From an uncultured virus (IMG/VR IMGVR_UViG_3300036760_001400) (Duplodnaviria; Heunggongvirae; Uroviricota; Caudoviricetes), in the IMG/VR virus record IMGVR_UViG_3300036760_001400: 64,000 bases of DNA; one strand, 5' to 3'. The translations under genes and the position numbers were made by a program. Position 1 is the first letter of the stretch; each line of letters opens with the position of its first letter. Of the stretch, positions 11,723 to 63,519 are shown piece after piece. Under the pieces are notes generated by a model that was given only the letters and a program-made list of their open reading frames with translations, was not told the DNA's origin and made no database searches.

Positions 11723-13018
11723 GTGTCCCAACAGTCCTCGTGGATCGATCGGTACGTATCGACTGTAGAGCGATATACCGACAGCCCTACGATCTTCATC
11801 AGAACGGCCGCCTACTTCGTAGCCGGGGCGGCCATCAGGAAGCTGGCCTACTTCAGAGAGTCAAAAAACCTTTTTCCAAACCTCTACTACGTTCTGGTCG
11901 CCCCTCCCGCCCGCTTCAGAAAAACCCACGCGCTCAACTTGGGTCTCACTGTCCTTGAGGAGGTGGTTCCCTGTAATCACTTTCTTCCTCAAGGTGGGAG
12001 CGACCAAGGTTTCGATGTAGCGCTTGTCCAGACCGATGGCTATGGGATCGCGTACTACGAAGAGCTCATGAAGTTCCTCGCCCTCTCGTCAAGGGAGCAC
12101 ACCTCCCAGATGGGGGTAAAGTTCCTCGAGTACTTCGATCCGTCCGGAAAGGACACGGTCACCAGAACGAAGAAGGATGGGGAGCTCGTGATTCCGAAGG
12201 GCACGTGTTCAACCTTTGCTTCAGCCTGCACGGATGATGACTTCCTTAAGTTCATGAGTTCAGGCGCCGTATCGAGCGGTCAGCTTTCGAGGTGCCTGGT
12301 CGTCAGCCCAAGCGAGGAGGACATCAGGCCTACCTATACAACCGTGCCTATTGTCCCGGATCATTTCTACCACAGCATGGCATCCGATCTTAAGAGCATC
12401 CTTCCAAAGTTCCAGACGGAATACAGGTTCACGAAGGATGCTTTAGATGAGATTGCCAGCTGCGATGATGCGGTATCGGAGTGGCACGAGGAGAACCATA
12501 ACTACGTCCTTCGGAAATCGACCGCGCGGGTCACCCACATCCTGAAGCGCCTGGCTCTCATCACGGCGGTCATGCGTGGGTCTAAGAATATCGTAGAACC
12601 GGAAGACGTGCAGGCAGCGTGGACAGGTCTCGTTTCCCCTCATTACCTTCGAACGATCAAGTACTTTGCCCGCTTTGGACAGCAGGAACGCTCAGACCAG
12701 ATGCTCAGGACGAATATCCAAAGACGGCTTGAGGGGGCTCCATCCACGGTACTTATCCTGGCGAGGGATTTGAACGAGAAACCGGAACATGTCTTCATGG
12801 CTGTCATGACGCTTCTCAAGCACGGGTCGATTTTCAAGGAGACCTTTAAGGGAGTTTCTTACTGGCGATCCTACGATCAAGAGAGTGACATAGATCCGAA
12901 CACTCCTATTGCCAAGGAAGAGAAGATCATCCGGGAGCTTCGTAAGCTTCTCAAGGAAGACGGCAAACCAAAGAAAGCTGGAAACATAATCAGGGTGGAG
13001 CATGAGGAGAAAGTCTGA
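11723..13018 (+). CDS. DUF3987/YfjI-like P-loop helicase of phage replication modules
   Basis: TDSPTIF...FPNLYYVLVAPPARFRKT (variant Walker A), YYEEL (Walker B), SGQLSR; AAGGAGG SD before GTG. Confidence 0.8.
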   Translation: MSQQSSWIDRYVSTVERYTDSPTIFIRTAAYFVAGAAIRKLAYFRESKNLFPNLYYVLVAPPARFRKTHALNLGLTVLEEVVPCNHFLPQGGSDQGFDVALVQTDGYGIAYYEELMKFLALSSREHTSQMGVKFLEYFDPSGKDTVTRTKKDGELVIPKGTCSTFASACTDDDFLKFMSSGAVSSGQLSRCLVVSPSEEDIRPTYTTVPIVPDHFYHSMASDLKSILPKFQTEYRFTKDALDEIASCDDAVSEWHEENHNYVLRKSTARVTHILKRLALITAVMRGSKNIVEPEDVQAAWTGLVSPHYLRTIKYFARFGQQERSDQMLRTNIQRRLEGAPSTVLILARDLNEKPEHVFMAVMTLLKHGSIFKETFKGVSYWRSYDQESDIDPNTPIAKEEKIIRELRKLLKEDGKPKKAGNIIRVEHEEKV

Positions 13019-13197
13019 TGGATCTTAAATGCCAGAGCTGTAAAGCCTCTCTCGTTCATACGGGAGACGGTTCCGATAGCGTTTCAACCTACACGGTCTA
13101 CGACTGCAGGAACTGCGGAGCCACTTTCATCCTTGCCGTAGAAGACGGTAAAGAAAAGATGGTGCAGGTGAGGGAGGCCCTTTTCAGGTACTCGTAG
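13018..13197 (+). CDS. small zinc-ribbon protein
   Basis: ATG overlaps the upstream TGA; CQSC...CRNC; below the ORF-track length cutoff. Confidence 0.55.
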   Translation: MDLKCQSCKASLVHTGDGSDSVSTYTVYDCRNCGATFILAVEDGKEKMVQVREALFRYS

Positions 13198-13383
13198 CAA
13201 CCGCGGGCTCCGCCTGTAGCGGGGTCCGATTGTTCTTTGATAGATGGACCAATCCTTGGCGGGATTTGTCTATCTGTATAACGTACCCAGGTCCTCTTCT
13301 GTGTGGGTTTCACCCCGGCATGGGGGAGGGCGCTGGAACGCCCTCCATAGGAGAGCATTCCAGCGCTTGTGAAAGGAGCGAGA

Positions 13384-13614
13384 ATGAGGGTGGTCAGCTG
13401 CGATCGGTGTAACATGCCCCTGGGGCATGCAAGCAGAACGCTTGCACTTTCGGAAGCTACGGCCAGGCCGCATGATACGTCAGCGATGGTCTACTTTCCG
13501 CGTGCACTGGACATCGGTCGAAAGCTTGTCCAATCCGATTTCTGTGCAAGCTGCCTGGATGATCTTGAGACCTGGTTTAATTCCAAAAAGTTCGAAGGTA
13601 AGGAAATCAGATGA
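13384..13614 (+). CDS. small zinc-ribbon protein
   Basis: AAGGAG SD; CDRC...DFCASC. Confidence 0.6.
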   Translation: MRVVSCDRCNMPLGHASRTLALSEATARPHDTSAMVYFPRALDIGRKLVQSDFCASCLDDLETWFNSKKFEGKEIR

Positions 13615-14990
13615 TCTGTCCAAGGTGCGAGAAACCTTCGGCCCTTTTTGTCCAGAAGATCACGATGGACAAGAGGGATACGAAAAGGAACGTCCTCGTG
13701 GAAGGAAAGGAAGTTTTCCTCTGCGACCCATGCAAGCGTGACTGGATCTCGACTTCATCCCTCTTCAGGGTCTACTGGAAAAAGGTCCGCACCAAGAAGC
13801 TTGGGGACCTTGAATTCGAGTTCATGTACTCCATGTTCCTGAAGGAGAACGAGAGATACGGGAGAAGCAACAAGAGGAAGTTTGCCCAGGCTGCCGTAGC
13901 TACGATCGGCGTCAATTCCATGGCGGATATCCCCAAACGCGCTTCGGTCTTCATTCCGGATGCTGATATCCTGACCCGTGAAGATTACGCCTGGGCCGCC
14001 GGTGTCATCGATGCCGTGAACGCAGCGGTAACCTCAAGTGGTGATCCCAAGAAGACCTGCCTCTCCATCAACCTGAACAAGAAGGACATCCTTGATCGGA
14101 TGGTCGATCTGGTCGGTGGAAAGGTGGTCAAGAGCGGAGAGAGCTGGCTCTTTACCACGACCCGGGATAATTCGGAAAGCCTGCTTCGACGCATGGATCC
14201 GTACCTCAAGTGCTCCAGGAAGAACCATCCAACCTCCCTCTCTGATGATGACCGCACGTTGGGATGGCTGGCCGGATTCATCCAAGCTTCCGCTGGAGAC
14301 GGTATCAAGACACGGTGTGAGTGGGCTTCCAAGGTCTTGGCAACCTTCTTTGATGGTGAAATGTCGTTTGACCGGGGGGTCTGGACCTTCTATCCTGAAG
14401 AAGGGATGTGGGAGAAACTGAAGATTTTCATTCATAGAAAAATTGATCCTGCCGGCGCTCAAGGCCCAAGGGCAGGATTGATTCCCAGGGAGGCTGGCCG
14501 CCTTCCGGATCCCGTGGGGGTGGGCATCGCTCTGGGTATACCGAAAGGTTCCCATCGAGAGCGCCCCCACGGGCCCAAACCGAATTCCGAAGTGGGTTCA
14601 AATCCCACGGTGGAAGGCGGCCAGATCGTCGTTCCGAAGTTGGAGTTTCCCCCTCCCTCTTCGGTTTGGGACAGCGCCCCGACGATCGAGATCGGGGAAA
14701 AGACATTTTCCAGGCTCAAGGAGAAGTCTTGCTTCCTTTGCAAGAGGATTGCCAAGGACCTGGAAAAGGACATGATGATCCTTAAAATGTCCAGCGAGAC
14801 GACGCTGCTTGGGAAGATCAGGCATCTATACGCTGAACTCGAGATCGAGCCCAAGCAGGATTGTGAGCAGTGTGGGCAGGAAGTGGCCTTGAGGCATTTC
14901 GAAGAAGACTTCAAGTTGTGCGAGAACTGCTCTCGTAATGAGAAGGTTGTTTTCGAAGTGCAAGAAGACAAGAAGTGGACGATGGTGTGA
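13611..14990 (+). CDS. degenerate double-LAGLIDADG protein with flanking zinc ribbons
   Basis: YAWAAGVIDA and LGWLAGFIQA helices, each followed by homing-endonuclease-like segments (ILDRMVDLVGGKV, LLRRMDPYL); CxxC pairs at both termini. Confidence 0.65.
   Translation: MICPRCEKPSALFVQKITMDKRDTKRNVLVEGKEVFLCDPCKRDWISTSSLFRVYWKKVRTKKLGDLEFEFMYSMFLKENERYGRSNKRKFAQAAVATIGVNSMADIPKRASVFIPDADILTREDYAWAAGVIDAVNAAVTSSGDPKKTCLSINLNKKDILDRMVDLVGGKVVKSGESWLFTTTRDNSESLLRRMDPYLKCSRKNHPTSLSDDDRTLGWLAGFIQASAGDGIKTRCEWASKVLATFFDGEMSFDRGVWTFYPEEGMWEKLKIFIHRKIDPAGAQGPRAGLIPREAGRLPDPVGVGIALGIPKGSHRERPHGPKPNSEVGSNPTVEGGQIVVPKLEFPPPSSVWDSAPTIEIGEKTFSRLKEKSCFLCKRIAKDLEKDMMILKMSSETTLLGKIRHLYAELEIEPKQDCEQCGQEVALRHFEEDFKLCENCSRNEKVVFEVQEDKKWTMV
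14445..14687 (+). ncRNA. highly structured RNA with a tRNA T-arm, embedded in the CDS
   Basis: 13-bp, 10-bp, 8-bp and 11-bp perfect complementary segments, GAAA tetraloop, GTGGG-TTCAAAT-CCCAC arm. Confidence 0.6.
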
Positions 14991-15174
14991 TATCAGCGCT
15001 GGTTTCTTTTTAACGTGGTTAGGAGGGTTTGACGGCAAGAAGATGATCGCGAACCGGATGAACGAAACTCGACCGGACTGACTGAAGAAGTAGCGCGTGT
15101 CCCTGTTGTACAGATGGTGGTAGCTACACTGTCTGCCTCAAGCCTGGATATCCAGTTCCAAAGGAGGTTTTCCC

Positions 15175-16086
15175 ATGTCCAGTCATTTGGCGGCGATCGA
15201 GGTGATGAAACTGCCTTGGATCGCTCTCTTGTTCATGCTGGCACACTGGAAGACGGCGGTGGCCGCTGTCTGGGGTGTCGGCTTCACCGTCATCCTTGTC
15301 AAGAGGATGTGCGAGTGGTATCGCGAAGACGGCCGTGATGCTGCGGTCGGAGCTTCTTCTGAGGGGGCTATTTTCTCCAACATGAAGCTGCTTTCCCGTG
15401 ATCGTCGTGGGGCCCGTCTGAAGGGTCTCATGACAAACGGGCTCTTCTGGATCCTCTACCTGGCTCATGCGACCGGTAAGAGGATCGCCAAATGGGCTTT
15501 CTACCCGATCCTTGTCGTCCTGGATAAGGCCCAGACGAAGGGAATCGAGGAAGGGAAGATTCCTGGGCTCAAGCATCTTCCGGTCATCGTAACCGATGAT
15601 ACGGATGGCCTTCCCAGTCCCGAGCCGACGGTTCTCATCGAGGGAGAGAATGCGTCGAAGTGCGTGAGCTGCAAGATGGTCGTGGCTCGCAGCAGCCGGC
15701 CTCATGTGTGTGAGAGCTTGGGAGAAGTCCATCTTGAAGGACTGAGAATCGTTCCTCCGGTCGCCGTACGCTCCATGCCCAAGAAGAAGTCCATGAAGTG
15801 CGATGACTGTAGCAAGATGATCATCGAGGACAGCAGCCACAAGTGCCTTAGCCGCGCTTGTGTCGATGATGATAGCGTGGTCCACTGCGAGTGTGGCACG
15901 GTCTACGTGCAGACCGATGACTTCGAGCACGTGTGCCCCGAGGAGGATGAGAAAGATCTCCAGGCCGAATGCAAGGACTGCGAGATCGAGTACGATCCGT
16001 CCGTGGACGTGCACGTTGCCCGATTCTGCAAGGGCTGCGATGAAGTCCACTGCAAGAAGCAGGACTGCGGCCACGTGGTCGCATAG
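15175..16086 (+). CDS. membrane-anchored protein with Cys/His-rich C-terminus
   Basis: AAGGAGG SD; hydrophobic N-terminal segments; repeated CxxC...HxC. Confidence 0.6.
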   Translation: MSSHLAAIEVMKLPWIALLFMLAHWKTAVAAVWGVGFTVILVKRMCEWYREDGRDAAVGASSEGAIFSNMKLLSRDRRGARLKGLMTNGLFWILYLAHATGKRIAKWAFYPILVVLDKAQTKGIEEGKIPGLKHLPVIVTDDTDGLPSPEPTVLIEGENASKCVSCKMVVARSSRPHVCESLGEVHLEGLRIVPPVAVRSMPKKKSMKCDDCSKMIIEDSSHKCLSRACVDDDSVVHCECGTVYVQTDDFEHVCPEEDEKDLQAECKDCEIEYDPSVDVHVARFCKGCDEVHCKKQDCGHVVA

Positions 16087-33639: not shown

Positions 33640-34308
33640 ATGCTGACCGCGCTTAAGAAGTTTCTCAAGGGGGATGACCGGCCTGAAGTCGTGAAGATGT
33701 TCGAGAAAGCGAAGGATGAACGTCAAGCTCTCGTCCTTCTGAAGGAATCGAGGGGTCGCGATGAATCCAGACGCGCTAATGCAAACCAGCATATCAACAG
33801 TCTCGTTCTCCTTGAGAAAAGGCTCATGGAGCAGGGCCAGGAGGAAAACGCGACCGATAGCGAGAAGATGCATCTTGTCCGCCAGATCAAGGCCCTGCGC
33901 GAGGAAATGCGCGATCTCCAGGCCAAGGTCGACAAGATCTACACCCCACGTCTTCGTACGGTTTGCCAGCACATCGCATCCCTTGAAACGGTGATCGAGG
34001 TGAAGAGCGAGCCCATTCCATCCATCGAGGCACTCGAGAATACCGCCGTCAAGGCCAGGACCATGATGGGGGACCTTGACCAGGCGGTAGAGCTGGCTCA
34101 CGGTATCAGCACTCCATTCATGAAAGAGGGCCCCGACAAGGAGGAAGAAGCTATCATGGCCGAGATGCAGGAGCGTGCCGACAAGGTGAAAGAAAAGAAG
34201 ATCAGGGAGAAAGAGGAGAAAGAGGACAAGGAGATCATGAGCATCTCGAAGGCGAAGGCAAAGACAAAGATGGCGAAAAAGGCCCTTGAGGTGGAGGATG
34301 AGGAATGA
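33640..34308 (+). CDS. coiled-coil protein, possibly PspA/Snf7 (ESCRT-III)-like
   Basis: N-terminal amphipathic MLTALKKFLKG, long heptad helices, DKEEEAIMAEM segment. Confidence 0.45.
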   Translation: MLTALKKFLKGDDRPEVVKMFEKAKDERQALVLLKESRGRDESRRANANQHINSLVLLEKRLMEQGQEENATDSEKMHLVRQIKALREEMRDLQAKVDKIYTPRLRTVCQHIASLETVIEVKSEPIPSIEALENTAVKARTMMGDLDQAVELAHGISTPFMKEGPDKEEEAIMAEMQERADKVKEKKIREKEEKEDKEIMSISKAKAKTKMAKKALEVEDEE

Positions 34309-34655
34309 GCACGAATGAAGCCATCATCCTTCTTCGCCTCACGATCAAGGCCAAGATCGCCCTTGACCAGGACAAGGTCAGCGAGGTCAAGACCATCCTC
34401 GGGACGGTCGAAGAGGCAATCCGCCTGTTCCAGACGGTCAGCGACGAGGAGCTGATCCAGGCCGACGTCCCTGTCTGCATCTGCGCGGATAAGCGTGGAT
34501 GGAGTACCTGCGGAGACAAATGCCACTATCATCCTCCCGAGTACATCTGCCTGTGCGGTGGATGTGGAAACTGCACCCTTATTGGAGAGAGGCAGGCATG
34601 CCAAAAGCGTGTAGCCTACATGAGGATGTGCCACAGGTGCGATCCCCAACCCTAG
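34305..34655 (+). CDS. Cys-rich hypothetical protein
   Basis: ATGA overlap with upstream gene; many Cys/His. Confidence 0.55.
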   Translation: MSTNEAIILLRLTIKAKIALDQDKVSEVKTILGTVEEAIRLFQTVSDEELIQADVPVCICADKRGWSTCGDKCHYHPPEYICLCGGCGNCTLIGERQACQKRVAYMRMCHRCDPQP

Positions 34656-34681
34656 ATCCACCCCATGGGGTGGATCTAGGG
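34650..34681. repeat. 32-bp perfect palindrome
   Basis: CCCTAGATCCACCCCA|TGGGGTGGATCTAGGG. Confidence 0.9.
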
Positions 34682-34910
34682 GGTCATCCGGGTTAAAATA
34701 ACCCGGTGAGACTCCTTCTTCGCATCATCTGCTTCTTCAGGAAGCACAAGTCCATCCGGTTCATCATTTCCGGAAGCTCCTACTGTATTCGCTGCGGGAA
34801 AAGGCTGTAGTCACGGGGCGCGGCCCAAACCGAAATGGCAGACCCCAAAAGGGGCGCTTTTAACATATCGAAGTACGGTAGGAATTGCATTACGGTATAG
34901 TGGAGGAACA

Positions 34911-35601: not shown

Positions 35602-36209
35602 GATATGCGCATGAGCCGGGACGAGATCTGGGCCTACTCCCTCTGCACGGCCATCGCTCATACGGAAGATCGGGAGGAGATCGAGTTTTACACCCTATGG
35701 ATCTACAGCCTTGGGTTCAAGTTCTATTTCGTGTAACAGGGGGATCATGAAGATGGAATACAACAGCGCTCTTCCGGACTACGGTGACAAGATGACGGTA
35801 GCTGAATTCCGGTCCTCCTGCGAGGACGGCTCCTTCATCGACTACGACGGCTGCGGCCACCCTGTGAAGGGTGACAAGATGATGGCCAGCCTGACCATCT
35901 ATCCGTCAAACCTTGAGGCGATCCCGAAAGATGCCACTCACATCATGTGGTTCAATCGATAGGAGGATCTTCGGTTTGGGCTTGTTCTATGAACCGTAAA
36001 TACCGCTGTGTGAGCTGCAGTTTCGAGTGGGAAGGTTACCGGGTGCTAAAGGATCTGGATACCGGGAAGGTAAGAAGGTTTCAGGATCCCCCTATGAGAG
36101 GGGGAATGACCGAGTGCCCGAAGTGCCTCAACCTCTACGTCGAGTGGATGAATGCGCTCGAGATTCTTGGAAAGCTTGGAAAGTATTGGGAAAGGTAAAG
36201 GAGGATACC

Positions 36210-39017: not shown

Positions 39018-39329
39018 ATGAGCAACAAGCGGCAAACCCTTGAGATCGGCGGGGCTGGCGGGAGCGGCTGGTCTTTCTGGTACAAGGAAGAGACGGGGGA
39101 CCTTGGGCGGGAAAAGGAAGTCCTCTTCTACCAGCCGTGGGGCCAACGGCCTCCAGCAGAAGTTTCGAAGGAGAAGGCCGAACGCTGGCCGAGCATGGAC
39201 TATGACGAGCGGTGGAAATTGACGGCAACTCTCTACCCTCATTGCATTGGAGACGGCCAAGTCAAGCCGCTCCGCTGGCCTGAACTGAAGATCGCGCTCT
39301 GGTGGTGGAATTGGGCGAAGACTGCATAG
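39018..39329 (+). CDS. Trp-rich hypothetical protein
   Basis: Fills the gap between the repeat copies. Confidence 0.5.
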   Translation: MSNKRQTLEIGGAGGSGWSFWYKEETGDLGREKEVLFYQPWGQRPPAEVSKEKAERWPSMDYDERWKLTATLYPHCIGDGQVKPLRWPELKIALWWWNWAKTA

Positions 39330-39330
39330 A

Positions 39331-39363
39331 AGAAGGATTCTGAGAACGGGAGGACGACAAATG
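39331..39363 (+). repeat. intergenic direct repeat copy 2
   Basis: AGAAGGATTCTGAGAACGGGAGGACGACAAATG. Confidence 0.85.
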
Positions 39364-40005
39364 AAAATCAAGATCGACTTCTGGCTGCAAGGAAAAGCCT
39401 CCTACGAGACGGAGGCCGATGATGTCAAGATGGCCCTGGAGATCGGCGTCAAGGCTGGGGTGGATTTCAGCTACGCCCGCCTCGACGGCGCCCGCCTCGA
39501 CGGCGCCCGCCTCGACGGCGCCCGCCTCGACCGCGCCAGCCTCGACGGCGCCCGCCTCGACGGCGCCCGCCTCGACGGCGCCCGCCTCGACGGCGCCCGC
39601 CTCGACGGCGCCAGCCTCGACCGCGCCAGCCTCGTCGGCGCCAGCCTCGTCGGCGCCAGCCTCGTCGGCGCCAGCCTCGACGGCGCCAGCCTCGACGGCG
39701 CCCGCCTCGACGGCGCCAAGAATCTCACGATGCCTACCGGAGAGTCGTGGGAGGAGTATCTGACGCAGACGGTTCCCGCGCTCCTCACGGCGGGCGGCAA
39801 GGCCCTGGACGACGTGGCCAACGAGGAGCATTGGTCGTGCCATGACTGGAACAACTGCCCGATCAAAGCGGCGTTCGACGTGAAGTCCGCCGACGATGTT
39901 CCTCCGCTCTACAGGATGCACGCGAAGCAGTTCGTGAGCCTGTTCGACGCGAAGCAGATTCCGCTCGACAAGGTGAATCCGAAGATGGCGAAGAGCAAGG
40001 CTTAG
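39361..40005 (+). CDS. pentapeptide repeat protein
   Basis: (A[R/S]L[D/V][G/R])n encoded by 15-bp tandem repeats at ~39475-39717. Confidence 0.92.
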   Translation: MKIKIDFWLQGKASYETEADDVKMALEIGVKAGVDFSYARLDGARLDGARLDGARLDRASLDGARLDGARLDGARLDGARLDGASLDRASLVGASLVGASLVGASLDGASLDGARLDGAKNLTMPTGESWEEYLTQTVPALLTAGGKALDDVANEEHWSCHDWNNCPIKAAFDVKSADDVPPLYRMHAKQFVSLFDAKQIPLDKVNPKMAKSKA

Positions 40006-40301
40006 AAGCCTGAAACGATGAACAGCGAGGCGCATTGTCGCGGGCAGGATCGGCTCTGCACCTGCCCATGTGGGAAGGGGCTTCGGCCAGAGTTTTCCAT
40101 CCTACGGCAGGAGCGCGGGAGAATCTGTGCCGACTGCCAAGCGGGGGAGGGTGAGGACCGCGCCGAAGCGGAGGCCGAGGCTTGCGTCTGTAGTTGGAAC
40201 GAGTTGAGCGGGTTCAGCGTGTGCGGGATGCCGTGTCCCGTCCACAAGCCGATGAATATCAGATGACCGGACGAACTATTGCGTGAACTAGAGGACCGCG
40301 C

Positions 40302-48312: not shown

Positions 48313-48903
48313 CTAGAAACTCCCCAAACGGTTCTTGATATAGTCTTCCCTCTTTGAGGGGAGGCAGTGAAGGTAAACCCGAGTGATGTCCATGGAGGAA
48401 TGGCCCATCTGACGGGAGACATAGTCTAGATCCCCCTTCGTCCACTCCAGAAGGTAGATAGCCCTGGAGTGCCTAAGGGAGTAGAGAGTATAGCTCTTGG
48501 CAAGGCCTGCCTTGGCTGCTGCTGCCTTGAACATCCTCCACATCGTAATCCGGGAGAACCCGAACAGCTTGTCCTCAGGCTTCCTGCCTTTTACCCAGGC
48601 CTTGAGATCAGAGGTAAAGTCCTCACTGAGATCCACATCCCTGAAGAAGACTGGGGCCTTCCCGGTCTCCTCGTCCTTCTTCTGCTTGATCGTCTGGACG
48701 TGGACCCGGTTCTCCCCAGGATAGAACCCTCTAATAGGCAGGTGAACGCTCTCAGTAGGCCTGAGACCCGTATTGGCCATGAACTTTAGGAACCGATGAC
48801 TATCCTCTCGTAGTTTCTTGGCTGCCACCAGGAGAGCGTCAATCTCGTCTTTTACGAGGTACTTATCCCTGTCTGGAGGCCTGTAGCTTACGGTTCCTGG
48901 CAT
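48313..48903 (-). CDS. tyrosine recombinase/integrase (catalytic domain only)
   Basis: TGLRPTE, K, YSLRHSRA, MGHSS, TRVY; the likely start ATG 48903 lies 7 nt after TATAAT. Confidence 0.88.
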   Translation of the reverse strand: MPGTVSYRPPDRDKYLVKDEIDALLVAAKKLREDSHRFLKFMANTGLRPTESVHLPIRGFYPGENRVHVQTIKQKKDEETGKAPVFFRDVDLSEDFTSDLKAWVKGRKPEDKLFGFSRITMWRMFKAAAAKAGLAKSYTLYSLRHSRAIYLLEWTKGDLDYVSRQMGHSSMDITRVYLHCLPSKREDYIKNRLGSF

Positions 48904-48931
48904 GTGAGGCATTATACCCAAGGGGCTAGTT

Positions 48932-48956
48932 TGAAACAATCTATCAGATTGTTTCA
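48932..48956. promoter_or_regulatory. inverted-repeat operator between divergent recombinase and wHTH genes
   Basis: TGAAACAATCT-ATC-AGATTGTTTCA overlapping the putative -35 of the recombinase promoter. Confidence 0.7.
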
Positions 48957-49018
48957 CACGATGGTGGAACAACATATGTATTTCCACTACATGCCTATGT
49001 TCCACGGTCTCTTTTACC

Positions 49019-49417
49019 ATGGAGGAACGCATGCTATACTCCCCCTCAGAGCCTGTTAGGAGCCTCCGGATGCCCCTAGGATACCTGCAGAAGCCTGATG
49101 AGTGGGGAGTCGAATGGCGTGCTGTTCTGTCGCTTCTGGCGGCACGCCAGCGCCTTACCCCAAGGGAAGCAGCGACGGAACTGTGTCTTGGGAAGGACAT
49201 TGAGACCGTAGAGTACCGTGGATCCAACCGGAGGGAGGTCCGGAGGATCAGGAATACAGGCCCTTCAGAAGCGAACGTCAGACTTCGCCGACTTGCTTCC
49301 TGGGGGATGGCCTACCGTGAGAAAGGTAGGGGTGGCCAGAATGTCTATGTAATCTCCCCCTACGGGCTGGAAGTTGATAAGAACCCTCCCAAGACCAATA
49401 GGAAGGCAAAGAAGTAA
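49019..49417 (+). CDS. winged-helix DNA-binding protein
   Basis: LTPREAA...ANVRLRRLASWGMAYR...VYVISPYG. Confidence 0.7.
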   Translation: MEERMLYSPSEPVRSLRMPLGYLQKPDEWGVEWRAVLSLLAARQRLTPREAATELCLGKDIETVEYRGSNRREVRRIRNTGPSEANVRLRRLASWGMAYREKGRGGQNVYVISPYGLEVDKNPPKTNRKAKK

Positions 49418-49491
49418 GCCCTCATAGCTCAACGGTAGAGCAGCCAGTCTGTACCTGGTTGACGCGGGCTCGACACCTGCTGAGGGCTCCA
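49418..49491 (+). tRNA. tRNA-Thr(TGT), atypical
   Basis: Acceptor GCCCTCA/TGAGGGC-T-CCA, D arm GCTC/GAGC, anticodon arm GCCAG-TCTGTAC-CTGGT, T arm GCGGG-CTCGACA-CCTGC. Confidence 0.8.
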
Positions 49492-57989: not shown

Positions 57990-58820
57990 TTAGCTGGCCA
58001 TAAGAGCGCCCACGGCAGCGTTGTAAGAAGCCACCGCCGGTACGATCTTCATGAGGCCCATTACTCCCAGGATACCGCCTCCCGTGTATCCGACAGCCTT
58101 CATCAGGACCATGTCATCGGGTACGACAAAGTAAGTTCCCGCGAAGCAGGCGATCGAACCTGCTACATAAGGGAGGGAGCTCTTGAGCGCTTCTCCGTAA
58201 GCATCGGTAGCCTGAGCCAGAACCTTCCCTAGATCAGGTCTGCTGGTAACCGCTTCGGAGAGAGCTTCATTCTCTTTTTCCAGGGTCAGGACTCGTTCGG
58301 TTTGGGTGGCCAGCCTCCCCTCCAGGTTCTCGATTTTCTTGAGAAGCTGGTTGACCTTCTTTTCGAGTTTATCCCTGAGAAGATTGAGGCTGTCGAGTTC
58401 TCCCTTGATCTTTTTGGCATACTCGGTCTGATCGAGCCAGCGACGCTTGAGCTCGGCATACTCATCGCGAAGTTCCCGGATTCTCCACCTGAGATCCCTG
58501 AGATCGCATTCCTTGAGCTTGAGAAGATCGTCTTTGGTCTTCTGACGGCGGCCCAGCGGATCTCTTGGGGATCCTTTAAGGAGCCTTTTCGCGATGCTCG
58601 AGATCTGTAGCTGGAGTTTCTTTGAACTGTACGGCTTATCGAGACGGCGCGGAGGACAGATACCTCCGGCCATGCTGTACCCTCCGCCCCCTCCGCTCGG
58701 AGGGGGCGGAGGAACGGGAACCGGTACCCGTTCGCGGAAATAGTCTGCCCCGAAATAATAGGGAGCAAAGAAGGCCGACCCAAAATAGCCTCGACTGGTT
58801 GTGGGAGGAGGGGGAGGCAT
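57990..58820 (-). CDS. coiled-coil protein with C-terminal membrane hairpin
   Basis: YFGSAFFAPYYFG N-terminus, long heptads, two hydrophobic helices. Confidence 0.65.
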   Translation of the reverse strand: MPPPPPTTSRGYFGSAFFAPYYFGADYFRERVPVPVPPPPPSGGGGGYSMAGGICPPRRLDKPYSSKKLQLQISSIAKRLLKGSPRDPLGRRQKTKDDLLKLKECDLRDLRWRIRELRDEYAELKRRWLDQTEYAKKIKGELDSLNLLRDKLEKKVNQLLKKIENLEGRLATQTERVLTLEKENEALSEAVTSRPDLGKVLAQATDAYGEALKSSLPYVAGSIACFAGTYFVVPDDMVLMKAVGYTGGGILGVMGLMKIVPAVASYNAAVGALMAS

Positions 58821-62603: not shown

Positions 62604-62637
62604 AGCCAGGGTGGATCCCTAGGGATCCACCCTGGCT
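62604..62637. repeat. 34-bp perfect palindrome
   Basis: AGCCAGGGTGGATCCCT|AGGGATCCACCCTGGCT. Confidence 0.9.
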
Positions 62638-62658
62638 CATTATTACACAGGAGACGCT

Positions 62659-62982
62659 ATGGAAAAAGAGACTCTAGCGAATCGATGCTTCAAAATCGGT
62701 GAGCAAGCAGGCCTGAAACTCATCGACACGCTCATCCGGAAGGTAAAGAAGGAACATCCCAAACCGAACCGTGTTGAAGGGCTAAGCGCCCTTCTGGCGG
62801 GCATTTCCTCATGTCTCCTGTTCAGGGGACATCGGGAAATAGAGCGGATGCTGTTCGAGGAAAAGATGGAGATCAAGACTGCAGACCAATGGATGCAGGC
62901 GACGATCTCGAAAGTGATCGAGGCTCTTGAAAGGGATAAGGTTCCCGTTGAAGCGAGGTTTTTTATCGGGAGGAAAAAATGA
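62659..62982 (+). CDS. hypothetical protein
   Basis: AGGAG SD. Confidence 0.55.
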   Translation: MEKETLANRCFKIGEQAGLKLIDTLIRKVKKEHPKPNRVEGLSALLAGISSCLLFRGHREIERMLFEEKMEIKTADQWMQATISKVIEALERDKVPVEARFFIGRKK

Positions 62983-63060
62983 CCCGATGACTTGAAGTCA
63001 CCCCCCCCGTCACACCGACCTGTACTTCTTTTTTCACTCTTTTTATTCAAGGAGATCCCC

Positions 63061-63519
63061 ATGTCAAACCCTGTCATTGTCCCCATTTCCGAGTGGGACT
63101 CGAACTCGAAATGCCATAAGTGCGAATCTCAGGGAGACGACCTCTCGATCATCTGGATCAAGACCGGAGAGGGAAAGGTGAACGGGGTCGATTACGCCTT
63201 CGAGGACATGAGGAAGGGCGTTCCCTACGAGCACCTCATGTATTCCTGCAAGGTATGTGGTTACCAGTGGCTTTCGGAAACATCCGACTCTAGCGACCGG
63301 TCCGAAGCCATGGATAAGGAATCCGTAGCTGAGGACCTGAAAGCAAAGGACGCCGAAGCCATGACTCCCGATGAAGAAACGCCCAGCGTGTCGGAAGGTA
63401 AGGCTGAACCTTCCATCAAAGGTCATCTCAGAAGGATGATGTCCCTCCGCTCTCGGCCAGCCTTTCCTCGACCTGGAAAGGGCTCGGGTACACCAAGCAT
63501 TCCTGACATCAGCATGTAA
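63061..63519 (+). CDS. zinc-ribbon protein with disordered tail
   Basis: AAGGAG SD; CHKC...EHL..SCKVCGYQW. Confidence 0.55.
   Translation: MSNPVIVPISEWDSNSKCHKCESQGDDLSIIWIKTGEGKVNGVDYAFEDMRKGVPYEHLMYSCKVCGYQWLSETSDSSDRSEAMDKESVAEDLKAKDAEAMTPDEETPSVSEGKAEPSIKGHLRRMMSLRSRPAFPRPGKGSGTPSIPDISM

Follow-up and report, generated by a model that had tools for sequence, protein, structure and literature searches.

The window analysed here is a 64,000-nt (64-kb) stretch of DNA from an uncultured virus of the Caudoviricetes (IMG/VR record IMGVR_UViG_3300036760_001400), and is part of a 148-kb contig from sediment metagenomes with phage-like gene content. An open reading frame (ORF) at 13611-14990, referred to as the host gene, encodes a predicted degenerate LAGLIDADG protein with a predicted disordered linker, and the codons of this linker form a densely folded stretch that is referred to as the element. 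The element is considered, with a probability of about 0.8, to be a real, conserved and uncatalogued nucleic-acid structure, most likely a sense-strand RNA, that lies in frame within the linker. Judging from the sequences compared, the core common to all clades appears to consist of an irregular 63-nt hairpin capped by a GNRA-type loop (LH), a junction strand rich in A (box A) and a hairpin of 5 bp whose 7-nt loop resembles a T loop (the T hairpin). In the clade of the window, the stem S13 closes this core into a three-way junction, which gives a tRNA-like frame without a D arm or an anticodon arm. The substitutions among homologues indicate that selection acts on the nucleic acid and that the peptide is its passenger. 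The fuller statement, in which a structured sense-strand RNA at 14441-14670 also carries a box-pairing switch on the tRNA-like frame, has an even chance of holding as a whole and includes a mechanism that we infer.

Structure of the element

An inverted-repeat scan recovered every stem named in the preliminary description of this region, and the GAAA loop noted there caps the long hairpin. The repeats that form S13 (13 nt), the ends of LH (10 nt), the helix of box A with a downstream box A' (11 nt) and a further stem at 14624-14687 (8 nt) are each 100% complementary, and those of the hairpin H1 (13 nt) are 85% complementary (Table 1). The region 14430-14700 has a folding energy of -132.5 kcal/mol (z -4.34) and none of 200 shuffled sequences was as stable, in agreement with the dense folding first described; the minus strand of the same region gave a z of -3.71. 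The sense strand folds better than the antisense strand in the core of the window (-49.3 kcal/mol, z -3.1, vs -46.4 kcal/mol, z -2.3), as it also does in the related locus L002 described below. The whole folded stretch lies in frame within the ORF of the host gene, as had been stated. It has a G+C content of 64% and zero or one stop per frame in all six frames, and because of this a stop-free frame across it is unremarkable.

No Rfam 15 family matched the folded stretch at the gathering score and no meaningful match appeared at E values up to 10, which leaves the element uncatalogued. The T-arm-like hairpin, GTGGG-TTCAAAT-CCCAC, aligns to positions 47-63 of the Rfam tRNA model (RF00005; 13.7 bits, E 7.7), consistent with the T arm originally proposed. 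The model covers only this 17-nt hairpin with a score below the gathering score of 29, and no tRNA cloverleaf was found. ARAGORN identified neither a tRNA nor a tmRNA at the element, and tmRNA was also absent from the Rfam scans, as was any match to the C4 antisense RNA family (RF01695). The group I and group II intron models gave no match at E values up to 10 in positions 14300-14800 of the window or in positions 900-1354 of L002. BLASTN of the element against GenBank phages returned no match, and the parts of the literature that were accessible held nothing on the element under the topics of LAGLIDADG with tRNA-like RNA, degenerate phage LAGLIDADG proteins, or structured RNA within coding sequence.

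Direct repeats (GAGAGCGCCCCCACG/GACAGCGCCCCGACG and ATCGAGAGCG/ATCGAGATCG; 14554-14571 and 14670-14694) are also found within the element. Their second copy could alternatively pair with the 5' strand of LH (-18.6 vs -28.5 kcal/mol), a feature that may be specific to the window.

Table 1. Coordinates of the element, its host gene, the copies of the 11-mer and neighbouring features in the window
Feature	Position	Strand	Evidence or remark
Host gene, 459 aa: N-terminal zinc ribbon and helices, double LAGLIDADG-like domain, disordered linker, C-terminal helical/zinc-ribbon domain	13611-14990	+	ORF, homologues, AlphaFold2 model
LAGLIDADG-like double domain, residues ~120-275	13968-14435	+	Foldseek, family profile
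C-terminal domain: three helices and a CxxC...CxxC ribbon	14670-14987	+	AlphaFold2 pLDDT 87.3 (folded alone)
Hairpin H1, 5' of core	14441-14483	+	Inverted repeat 14441-14453/14471-14483; pairing possible at 0.87 of determined pairs
S13, 5' strand	14494-14506	+	Inverted repeat with 14612-14624
Long irregular hairpin LH, 63 nt, GAAA tetraloop at 14543-14546	14511-14573	+	Inverted repeat 14511-14520/14564-14573; folds; homologue pairing
Box A, junction strand, CCCAAACCGAA, read as PKPN	14574-14584	+	Inverted repeat with box A'
T-arm-like hairpin, 5 bp, 7-nt loop	14592-14608	+	Rfam tRNA alignment; homologue pair types
S13, 3' strand	14612-14624	+	Inverted repeat with 14494-14506
Stem 14624-14631/14680-14687, window only	14624-14687	+	Inverted repeat; not possible in homologues
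Box B, degenerate second copy of box A (TTCCGAAGTTGG...)	14632-14645	+	Direct repeat; hairpin CCGAAG/CTTCGG with the 3' box
Box A', TTCGGTTTGGG, read as SVW; pseudoknot 3' strand	14660-14670	+	Complement of box A; duplex -17.2 kcal/mol
Exact 11-mer, leader before ORF 34912; small hairpin and T run after	34824-34834	+	
Exact 11-mer; + transcript has its complement right before ATG 35989 of a small CxxC ORF	35970-35980	-	
Exact 11-mer within minus-strand gene 57990-58820, other reading frame	58296-58306	-	
Exact 11-mer, read as PKPN in the + ORF from ATG 62660; GC-rich hairpin after	62758-62768	+	
RadC, DUF669, AAA_24, HNH, PD-(D/E)XK nuclease and SNF2 helicase genes	3-10 kb	-	Phage gene content
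Primase-like gene, upstream of host gene	11723-13018		PHROG 'DNA primase' families, E 2e-17
tRNA-Thr	49418-49491		Sole tRNA from ARAGORN and from Rfam at gathering score

Conservation of the linker and of base pairing

The host protein exhibits 42-50% identity with 11 homologues found among 5.8 billion clustered proteins. Residues 276-354, which are encoded by the folded stretch, are predicted to be disordered by AlphaFold2 (AF2), with a predicted local distance difference test score (pLDDT) below 50 (23-34 per block). This disordered linker is nevertheless the best conserved part of the protein, with a mean pairwise identity of 0.63 for residues 295-338 and 0.67 for residues 301-333 compared with 0.51 for the zinc ribbon, 0.57 for the LAGLIDADG domain and 0.51 for the C-terminal domain.

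Pairing was assessed at the codon level by counting only those pairs with both bases at codon positions 1 or 2. As a control, the 5' and 3' strands were taken from different homologues (110 combinations), and in a second control the partner strand was slid by 1-3 bases. Full pairing is possible in all 11 homologues for the T hairpin, the outer helix of LH and S13, vs 66, 65 and 92 of the 110 mixed partners respectively. Slid partners gave far lower pairing, with H1 reaching 0.87 in register vs 0.30-0.63 when slid, and across 10 to 16 homologues none of the amino-acid changes rules out the pairing of the paired bases. The stem 14624-31/14680-87 behaves differently, with a value of 0.46 in this test and 3 to 6 of its 8 pairs possible in the homologues, and its failure shows that the measure discriminates. 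Of the stems in the preliminary description, the one at 14624-14687 is not kept in the homologues.

The residues that encode the helices change in a matched manner. The flanks of the T hairpin are V..T, A..A or P..G, which back-translate to GT/AC, GC/GC and CC/GG (11/11 homologues), and the outer helix of LH is read as PVGV..RPHG, ARGE..RPPG, AGGE..RPAG, GRGE..RPPA or PAGV..YPSG; the MAFFT alignment (A6) offsets the two LH strands by one column. Three columns contain residues that share their first codon base only, namely P/R/L/Q in box A, P/Q/L/R at the end of S13 and V/A/E/G before EG. In each of these the variable second base faces the third codon position of the opposite strand, so a silent change can compensate. 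The T hairpin is translated in two different frames, giving an AGSNPA-type peptide in the close clade, TGLKSRG in L002, TGLKSPG in P0015 and AG[FL]DSRG in P0018 and P0023. The fifth position of its loop stays A (N or T codons) in all close homologues, positions 2 and 3 are variable (TC, TT, CT or CC), and the loop of L002 is TTAAAAT.

The untranslated relative L002 and the distribution of the element

The sole relative with DNA across the element is L002; metagenome contigs yielded only this locus and a second related one, L001, which ends before the element. The N-terminal ORF of L002 stops at a TAG inside LH, stops are present in all three frames within 950-1126, and fragments of the usual peptide are scattered over the three frames. 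LH is retained with compensatory changes (CCGTGGGGG/CCCCCACGG to CCAGGGGAGG/CCTCCCCTGG), as is the T hairpin (GTGGG/CCCAC to CCGGG/CCCGG), whose second-frame reading is ACC GGG TTA AAA TCC CGG GGG for TGLKSRG. The junction strand of L002 is CCCAAACAGAA, a different 8-bp hairpin occupies the place of H1, and S13 is absent. The sense strand folds at -53.9 kcal/mol (z -4.6) vs -42.1 kcal/mol (z -2.1) for the antisense strand, a difference of 11.8 kcal/mol in favour of sense. Since the hairpins are kept with no open frame, the element core can exist untranslated, and L002 is therefore evidence for an RNA or single-strand function that is independent of the peptide. An HNH_3-type ORF follows at 1127-1354, about 30 nt past the core and open at the contig end (Pfam E 7e-5, 22.8 bits vs a cut-off of 24.8).

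The peptide signature of the element, GE[DG]R...ERPxPxKxN...AG.., is kept in the distant full-length proteins P0013, P0015 and P0018 (27-35% identity overall), in the fragment P0023, and in P0021, which exhibits the signature without a LAGLIDADG domain. The proteins P0024 and P0026 feature the domain with only a short proline-rich linker and no signature. The RNA is therefore tied to the linker position of the gene family and not to the LAGLIDADG domain as such. The possibly undescribed LAGLIDADG-RNA pair that had been put forward accordingly falls as an obligatory pairing, and what survives of it is the folded nucleic acid, which appears real, conserved and uncatalogued. Seventeen protein sequences run in frame through the element, which argues against an obligatorily spliced intron, although open frames are over-represented in protein databases and stops are scarce here in every frame. 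C-terminal pieces such as P0016 start at SVW.

Further searches added little to this set. A third protein search (alignment A3) contributed only P0024, and a search with residues 285-360 among short proteins returned nothing. Loci were scanned with a 3-member distant alignment, an 8-member alignment being too diverse. The scans of viral contigs found no relative, and a further scan gave six loci that were all ordinary tRNA genes. Genome contigs held no relative either, the four hits obtained being chance matches to bacteria of high GC content. Four family members used as TBLASTN queries had no match among GenBank phages. Contigs from sequencing runs that cover the gene (X2, X3, X5) are identical to the window and X4 yielded none, so that these contigs provided no variants and no joints.

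Boxes A, B and A' and the dispersed 11-mer

Box A (CCCAAACCGAA) is complementary to box A', which is located 75 nt downstream, and the two can form an 11-bp helix. The SVW residues encoded by box A' exhibit an identity of 0.89, forming an island within a stretch of 0.32. In P0008, a change of K to E in box A is accompanied by a change of W to R in box A', which corresponds to A-T becoming G-C. Box B, a second and degenerate copy of box A (PKP[NKM]-type), is located between the closing stem and box A' in nine of the 12 close homologues, and odd changes are common to boxes A and B (PEPN/PEPN in P0008 and PKLN/PKLK in P0010). Box B of the window forms a local hairpin, CCGAAG/CTTCGG, with part of box A', and because of this second pairing box A' has two mutually exclusive partners.

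The exact 11-mer CCCAAACCGAA is present six times in the window (14574+, 14660-, 34824+, 35970-, 58296- and 62758+), where shuffling gives an expectation of 0.01, and no other dispersed 11-mer in the window is repeated as often. Single-mismatch copies are absent, and those with two mismatches are about as frequent as expected by chance. Two of the remote copies have a GC-rich hairpin within 7-8 nt downstream, as does box A. The 11-mer fits three readings alike: alternative RNA pairing, an antisense box with its targets, and copies of a DNA site for a protein.

The remote copy at 62758 falls within a plus-strand ORF (62660-62980) of 107 aa that has GGAG before its ATG and overlaps a longer minus-strand ORF (62643-63086). 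The 11-mer is read here in the same frame as in the host gene.

The host protein

The host protein did not exhibit homology with any Pfam family at E values up to 1, the LAGLIDADG_1, _2 and _3 models not being reached, and PHROGs gave nothing directly either. A search with the family profile identified 99 matches among 1.84 billion representative proteins, the weak ones covering profile positions 122-207, and Pfam LAGLIDADG_1 or LAGLIDADG_3 is present in 14 of the 24 profile matches scanned. The AF2 model (mean pLDDT 67.7) exhibits a double LAGLIDADG-type fold. Foldseek analysis of this model identified I-DmoI and I-Tsp061I as the best protein data bank matches (E 9e-4, probability 1.0, template modelling score 0.54-0.60 when normalised by target), with the bI3 maturase and I-AniI also among the matches, and the viral Foldseek matches are LAGLIDADG proteins. 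The host protein is thus predicted to have a degenerate double LAGLIDADG fold, which lends support to the initial reading of the gene.

The altered motifs AAGVIDAVN and LAGFIQASA seen at the outset are present in the translation and, with the homologues, are generalised to AAGVIDA[VCL] for motif 1 and AGF[AI]QAS for motif 2. An acidic residue is absent at position 8 of both motifs, which we take to be the catalytic acidic position of LAGLIDADG motifs; some distant family members retain a D or E in motif 2. The C-terminal domain produced no Foldseek match at E values up to 0.001, and its best VIA hits, to helix-turn-helix-like domains (Z 3.5), are not meaningful.

Genomic context

The host gene follows the primase-like gene and two small ORFs with CxxC motifs, and is placed within the replication module. 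The related locus L001 also encodes a primase-like gene followed by the host gene, in the same order as in the window. The turn of the GC skew coincides with the divergence of the genes near 8-10 kb, and the skew does not turn at the element. Scans for promoters and terminators in 13000-15600 produced hits at chance level only. Two tyrosine recombinases are encoded within the window.

Several further features were observed. Small ORFs with paired CxxC motifs (zinc-ribbon-like) are found near replication genes at 13018-13197, 13369-13614 and 35989-36198 in the window and at 1180-1452 in L001, and one such ORF lies between the primase-like gene and the host gene in the window and L001 alike. A minus-strand tyrosine recombinase gene adjoins the tRNA-Thr (48313-49491), which is the usual layout of an integration module. 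A tandem 15-nt unit (GCCCGCCTCGACGGC-like, at least 11 copies) occupies 39474-39720 within the minus-strand ORF 39262-40035, in a stretch of 61% G+C. At 34643-34707, 3' of the ORF 34305-34655, a near-perfect 14-bp palindromic hairpin (CCCTAGATCCACCC...GGGTGGATCTAGGG) is followed by a second hairpin, CCGGGTTAAAATAACCCGG, and the palindrome GGGTGGATCCCTAGGGATCCACCC at 62610-62634 resembles the palindrome in this region.

Proposed mode of action and alternative explanations

A pseudoknot is proposed to arise from the pairing of box A with box A', which begins 75 nt further 3', and the element may operate as a pairing switch in which box A' joins either box A, giving the pseudoknot, or box B, which would act as a decoy, giving the local hairpin. 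Because box A' has two partners and the 11-nt box recurs at four other places in the genome, the element would most likely act by box-to-box base pairing. It could do so in cis, on the mRNA that carries it and between the two protein halves, or possibly in trans on the remote box sites, in the manner of c4 of P1 and CI of P4 with their repeated target boxes.

A number of points weigh against this proposal. Ribosomes must unfold the element at each translation of the gene, and the Rfam C4 family does not match it. The covariation is inferred from proteins, which do not give third codon positions, and the DNA of a relative comes from L002 only; protein databases list open reading frames, which biases the count of in-frame copies toward open ones. 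The four remote 11-mers share no other flanking sequence. Five stretches around them were folded, with both strands taken at 35970, and three of these are not unusually structured. The concerted changes in boxes A, B and A', like the scatter of exact copies over both strands (three plus, three minus), would be explained equally well by RNA pairing and by a DNA site to which a protein binds. Neither the distant clades nor L002 have a recognisable S13, box B or box A', and for this reason the switch, if real, is a feature of the clade and not of the core.

Among the alternatives, we would place an RNA partner of the encoded protein ahead of a substrate of tRNA enzymes, followed by an intron or homing target and a DNA-level replication element. 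Binding of intron RNA is known from LAGLIDADG maturases, and the 3' end of tnpB overlaps the RNA used by TnpB. By analogy, the mRNA segment or a processed piece of it might be bound by the encoded zinc-ribbon/dead-LAGLIDADG protein as an autoregulatory operator, a cofactor or a scaffold. This would suit an element that is always found within this gene family, and a protein with two zinc ribbons whose motifs lack acidic residues, as in maturases and in WhiA. The fold of the protein is closest to that of I-DmoI, and the matches to the bI3 maturase and I-AniI are in line with it. However, P0021 combines the signature with no LAGLIDADG domain, the element is missing from P0024 and P0026 although the domain is present in both, and the C-terminal domain has no clear fold match, and we regard such a partnership as rather unlikely. 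It is still less likely that the element is a stable RNA on a tRNA frame that serves as a substrate of tRNA enzymes (RNase P, RNase Z or T-loop modifiers), whether excised or as a decoy, in the manner of the T4 species 1 RNA. In its layout, with a long hairpin and a T arm enclosed by a closing stem, the element agrees with the computed T4 fold, and the A at the fifth loop position is constant in close homologues. The T hairpin is separated by 3 nt from a 13-bp stem, though, vs 0 nt and 7 bp, loop positions 2 and 3 vary (with TTAAAAT in L002), S13 is missing from L002 and not seen in distant clades, and excision would sever the mRNA of a gene that keeps its frame. A new intron type had also been suggested, and the element could be a self-splicing or otherwise excised RNA, or a remnant of one, with L002 as the endonuclease-bearing form. 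The HNH_3 ORF right after the core of L002, where the host frame is closed, keeps this suggestion alive, as do the absence of the element from the distant P0024 and P0026 and the C-terminal pieces such as P0016 that begin at SVW. It is weakened by the 17 proteins, which read through even with the hairpin in the other frame, so that translation through the element appears to be selected; in addition, group I and II models do not match, no close homologue without the intron is known, and homing of a free-standing HNH gene into conserved DNA would be a simple alternative. On balance an intron is improbable.

A DNA-level element is equally improbable. Here, the boxes would be iteron-like sites for a phage DNA-binding protein and the hairpins would form in single-stranded DNA, as an origin or a primase-loading signal within the linker codons of a replication gene, by analogy with ori-lambda in gene O. 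The position after the primase-like gene, shared with L001, the exact 11-mer on both strands in coding and non-coding sequence and in different frames, and the concerted change of boxes A, B and A' are all in its favour. The element has no AT-rich part at 64% G+C, however, its loops, of GNRA and T-loop type, are motifs of RNA, a single origin would not have copies spaced 20-28 kb apart, and the turn of the GC skew lies elsewhere. The sense strand also folds better by 3 to 12 kcal/mol, an advantage that points to G-U pairs. Of the suggestion of an RNA-guided factor, which has no direct support, what is left is one unexpected lead, the exact six-fold 11-mer. The 11-nt box or its complement could be a guide address that is read against the four other copies, as DNA or RNA, with the dead LAGLIDADG/zinc-ribbon protein as partner. 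We give this little credence; if true, it would represent an RNA-addressed regulator or recombination factor of an undescribed kind. Strongly disfavoured, and barely credible, is the view that there is no nucleic-acid function at all, the linker being a short linear protein motif and the stems a by-product of its Pro/Gly-rich codons. Such G+C-rich sequence does fold readily, and the antisense z of -3.7 is a reminder of this. Against it, the hairpins of L002 are kept with no open frame, residue sets share one codon base only, pair types switch together and a single hairpin is read in two frames.

The preferred reading, a folded sense-strand RNA within linker codons, has implications for how such elements are found. 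Structured RNAs are usually sought between genes, and here a disordered linker would provide free space for an in-frame folded RNA. The tell-tale is a disordered segment that is better conserved than the folded domains and has substitutions that are sensible only as base pairs, a signature of disorder and conservation that can be searched for systematically from protein alignments alone. The exact dispersed 11-nt box in turn leads to a concrete hypothesis of RNA-RNA or RNA-DNA addressing.

Comparison with known systems

The layout of the element, a closing stem, a long hairpin and a terminal T-arm-type hairpin, is that of the T4 species 1 RNA (rnaC; AF158101, 70908-71046), which is likewise borne by a phage. 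The computed fold of rnaC ends in CCGGG-TTCGAAT-CCCGG and the closing strand. The two were compared by fold layout, and the likeness is one of architecture only. The T4 RNA is a free-standing gene in a tRNA cluster and its T arm abuts the closing strand, whereas the element lies in frame inside a protein gene and has a 13-bp stem with a 3-nt spacer, a putative pseudoknot and variable T-loop letters. Among the tRNA-frame RNAs of large phages, a group that is poorly understood, the element would be a case that is translated.

The c4 RNA of P1 and P7 and the CI RNA of P4 are small structured RNAs with tRNA-like features that are processed by RNase P, and each contains a box complementary to repeated boxes of the same transcript near replication genes. 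The element resembles them in having boxes A/B and A' on one transcript beside a primase-like gene. Unlike c4 and CI, it is translated, it lies outside the Rfam C4 family, and its boxes are also found 20-48 kb away on both strands.

The lambda origin (ori-lambda) lies inside gene O, in the linker codons of a protein of the replication module, and the element is similarly a nucleic-acid element in the flexible-linker codons of a replication-module protein. It differs from ori-lambda in having neither an iteron array nor an AT-rich region, and compensatory changes maintain its helices, which speaks for a single strand that folds. The structured RNA in a phage gene and the HNH gene beside the core in L002 recall group I introns with homing endonuclease genes, but there is no Rfam intron match and the frame runs through the element in 17 proteins. 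The predicted double LAGLIDADG fold of the host protein is shared with I-DmoI, I-Tsp061I, the bI3 maturase and I-AniI. Unlike these enzymes, the host protein is beyond the reach of the Pfam models, lacks the acidic residues in both motifs, is flanked by zinc ribbons and is encoded outside any intron or intein.

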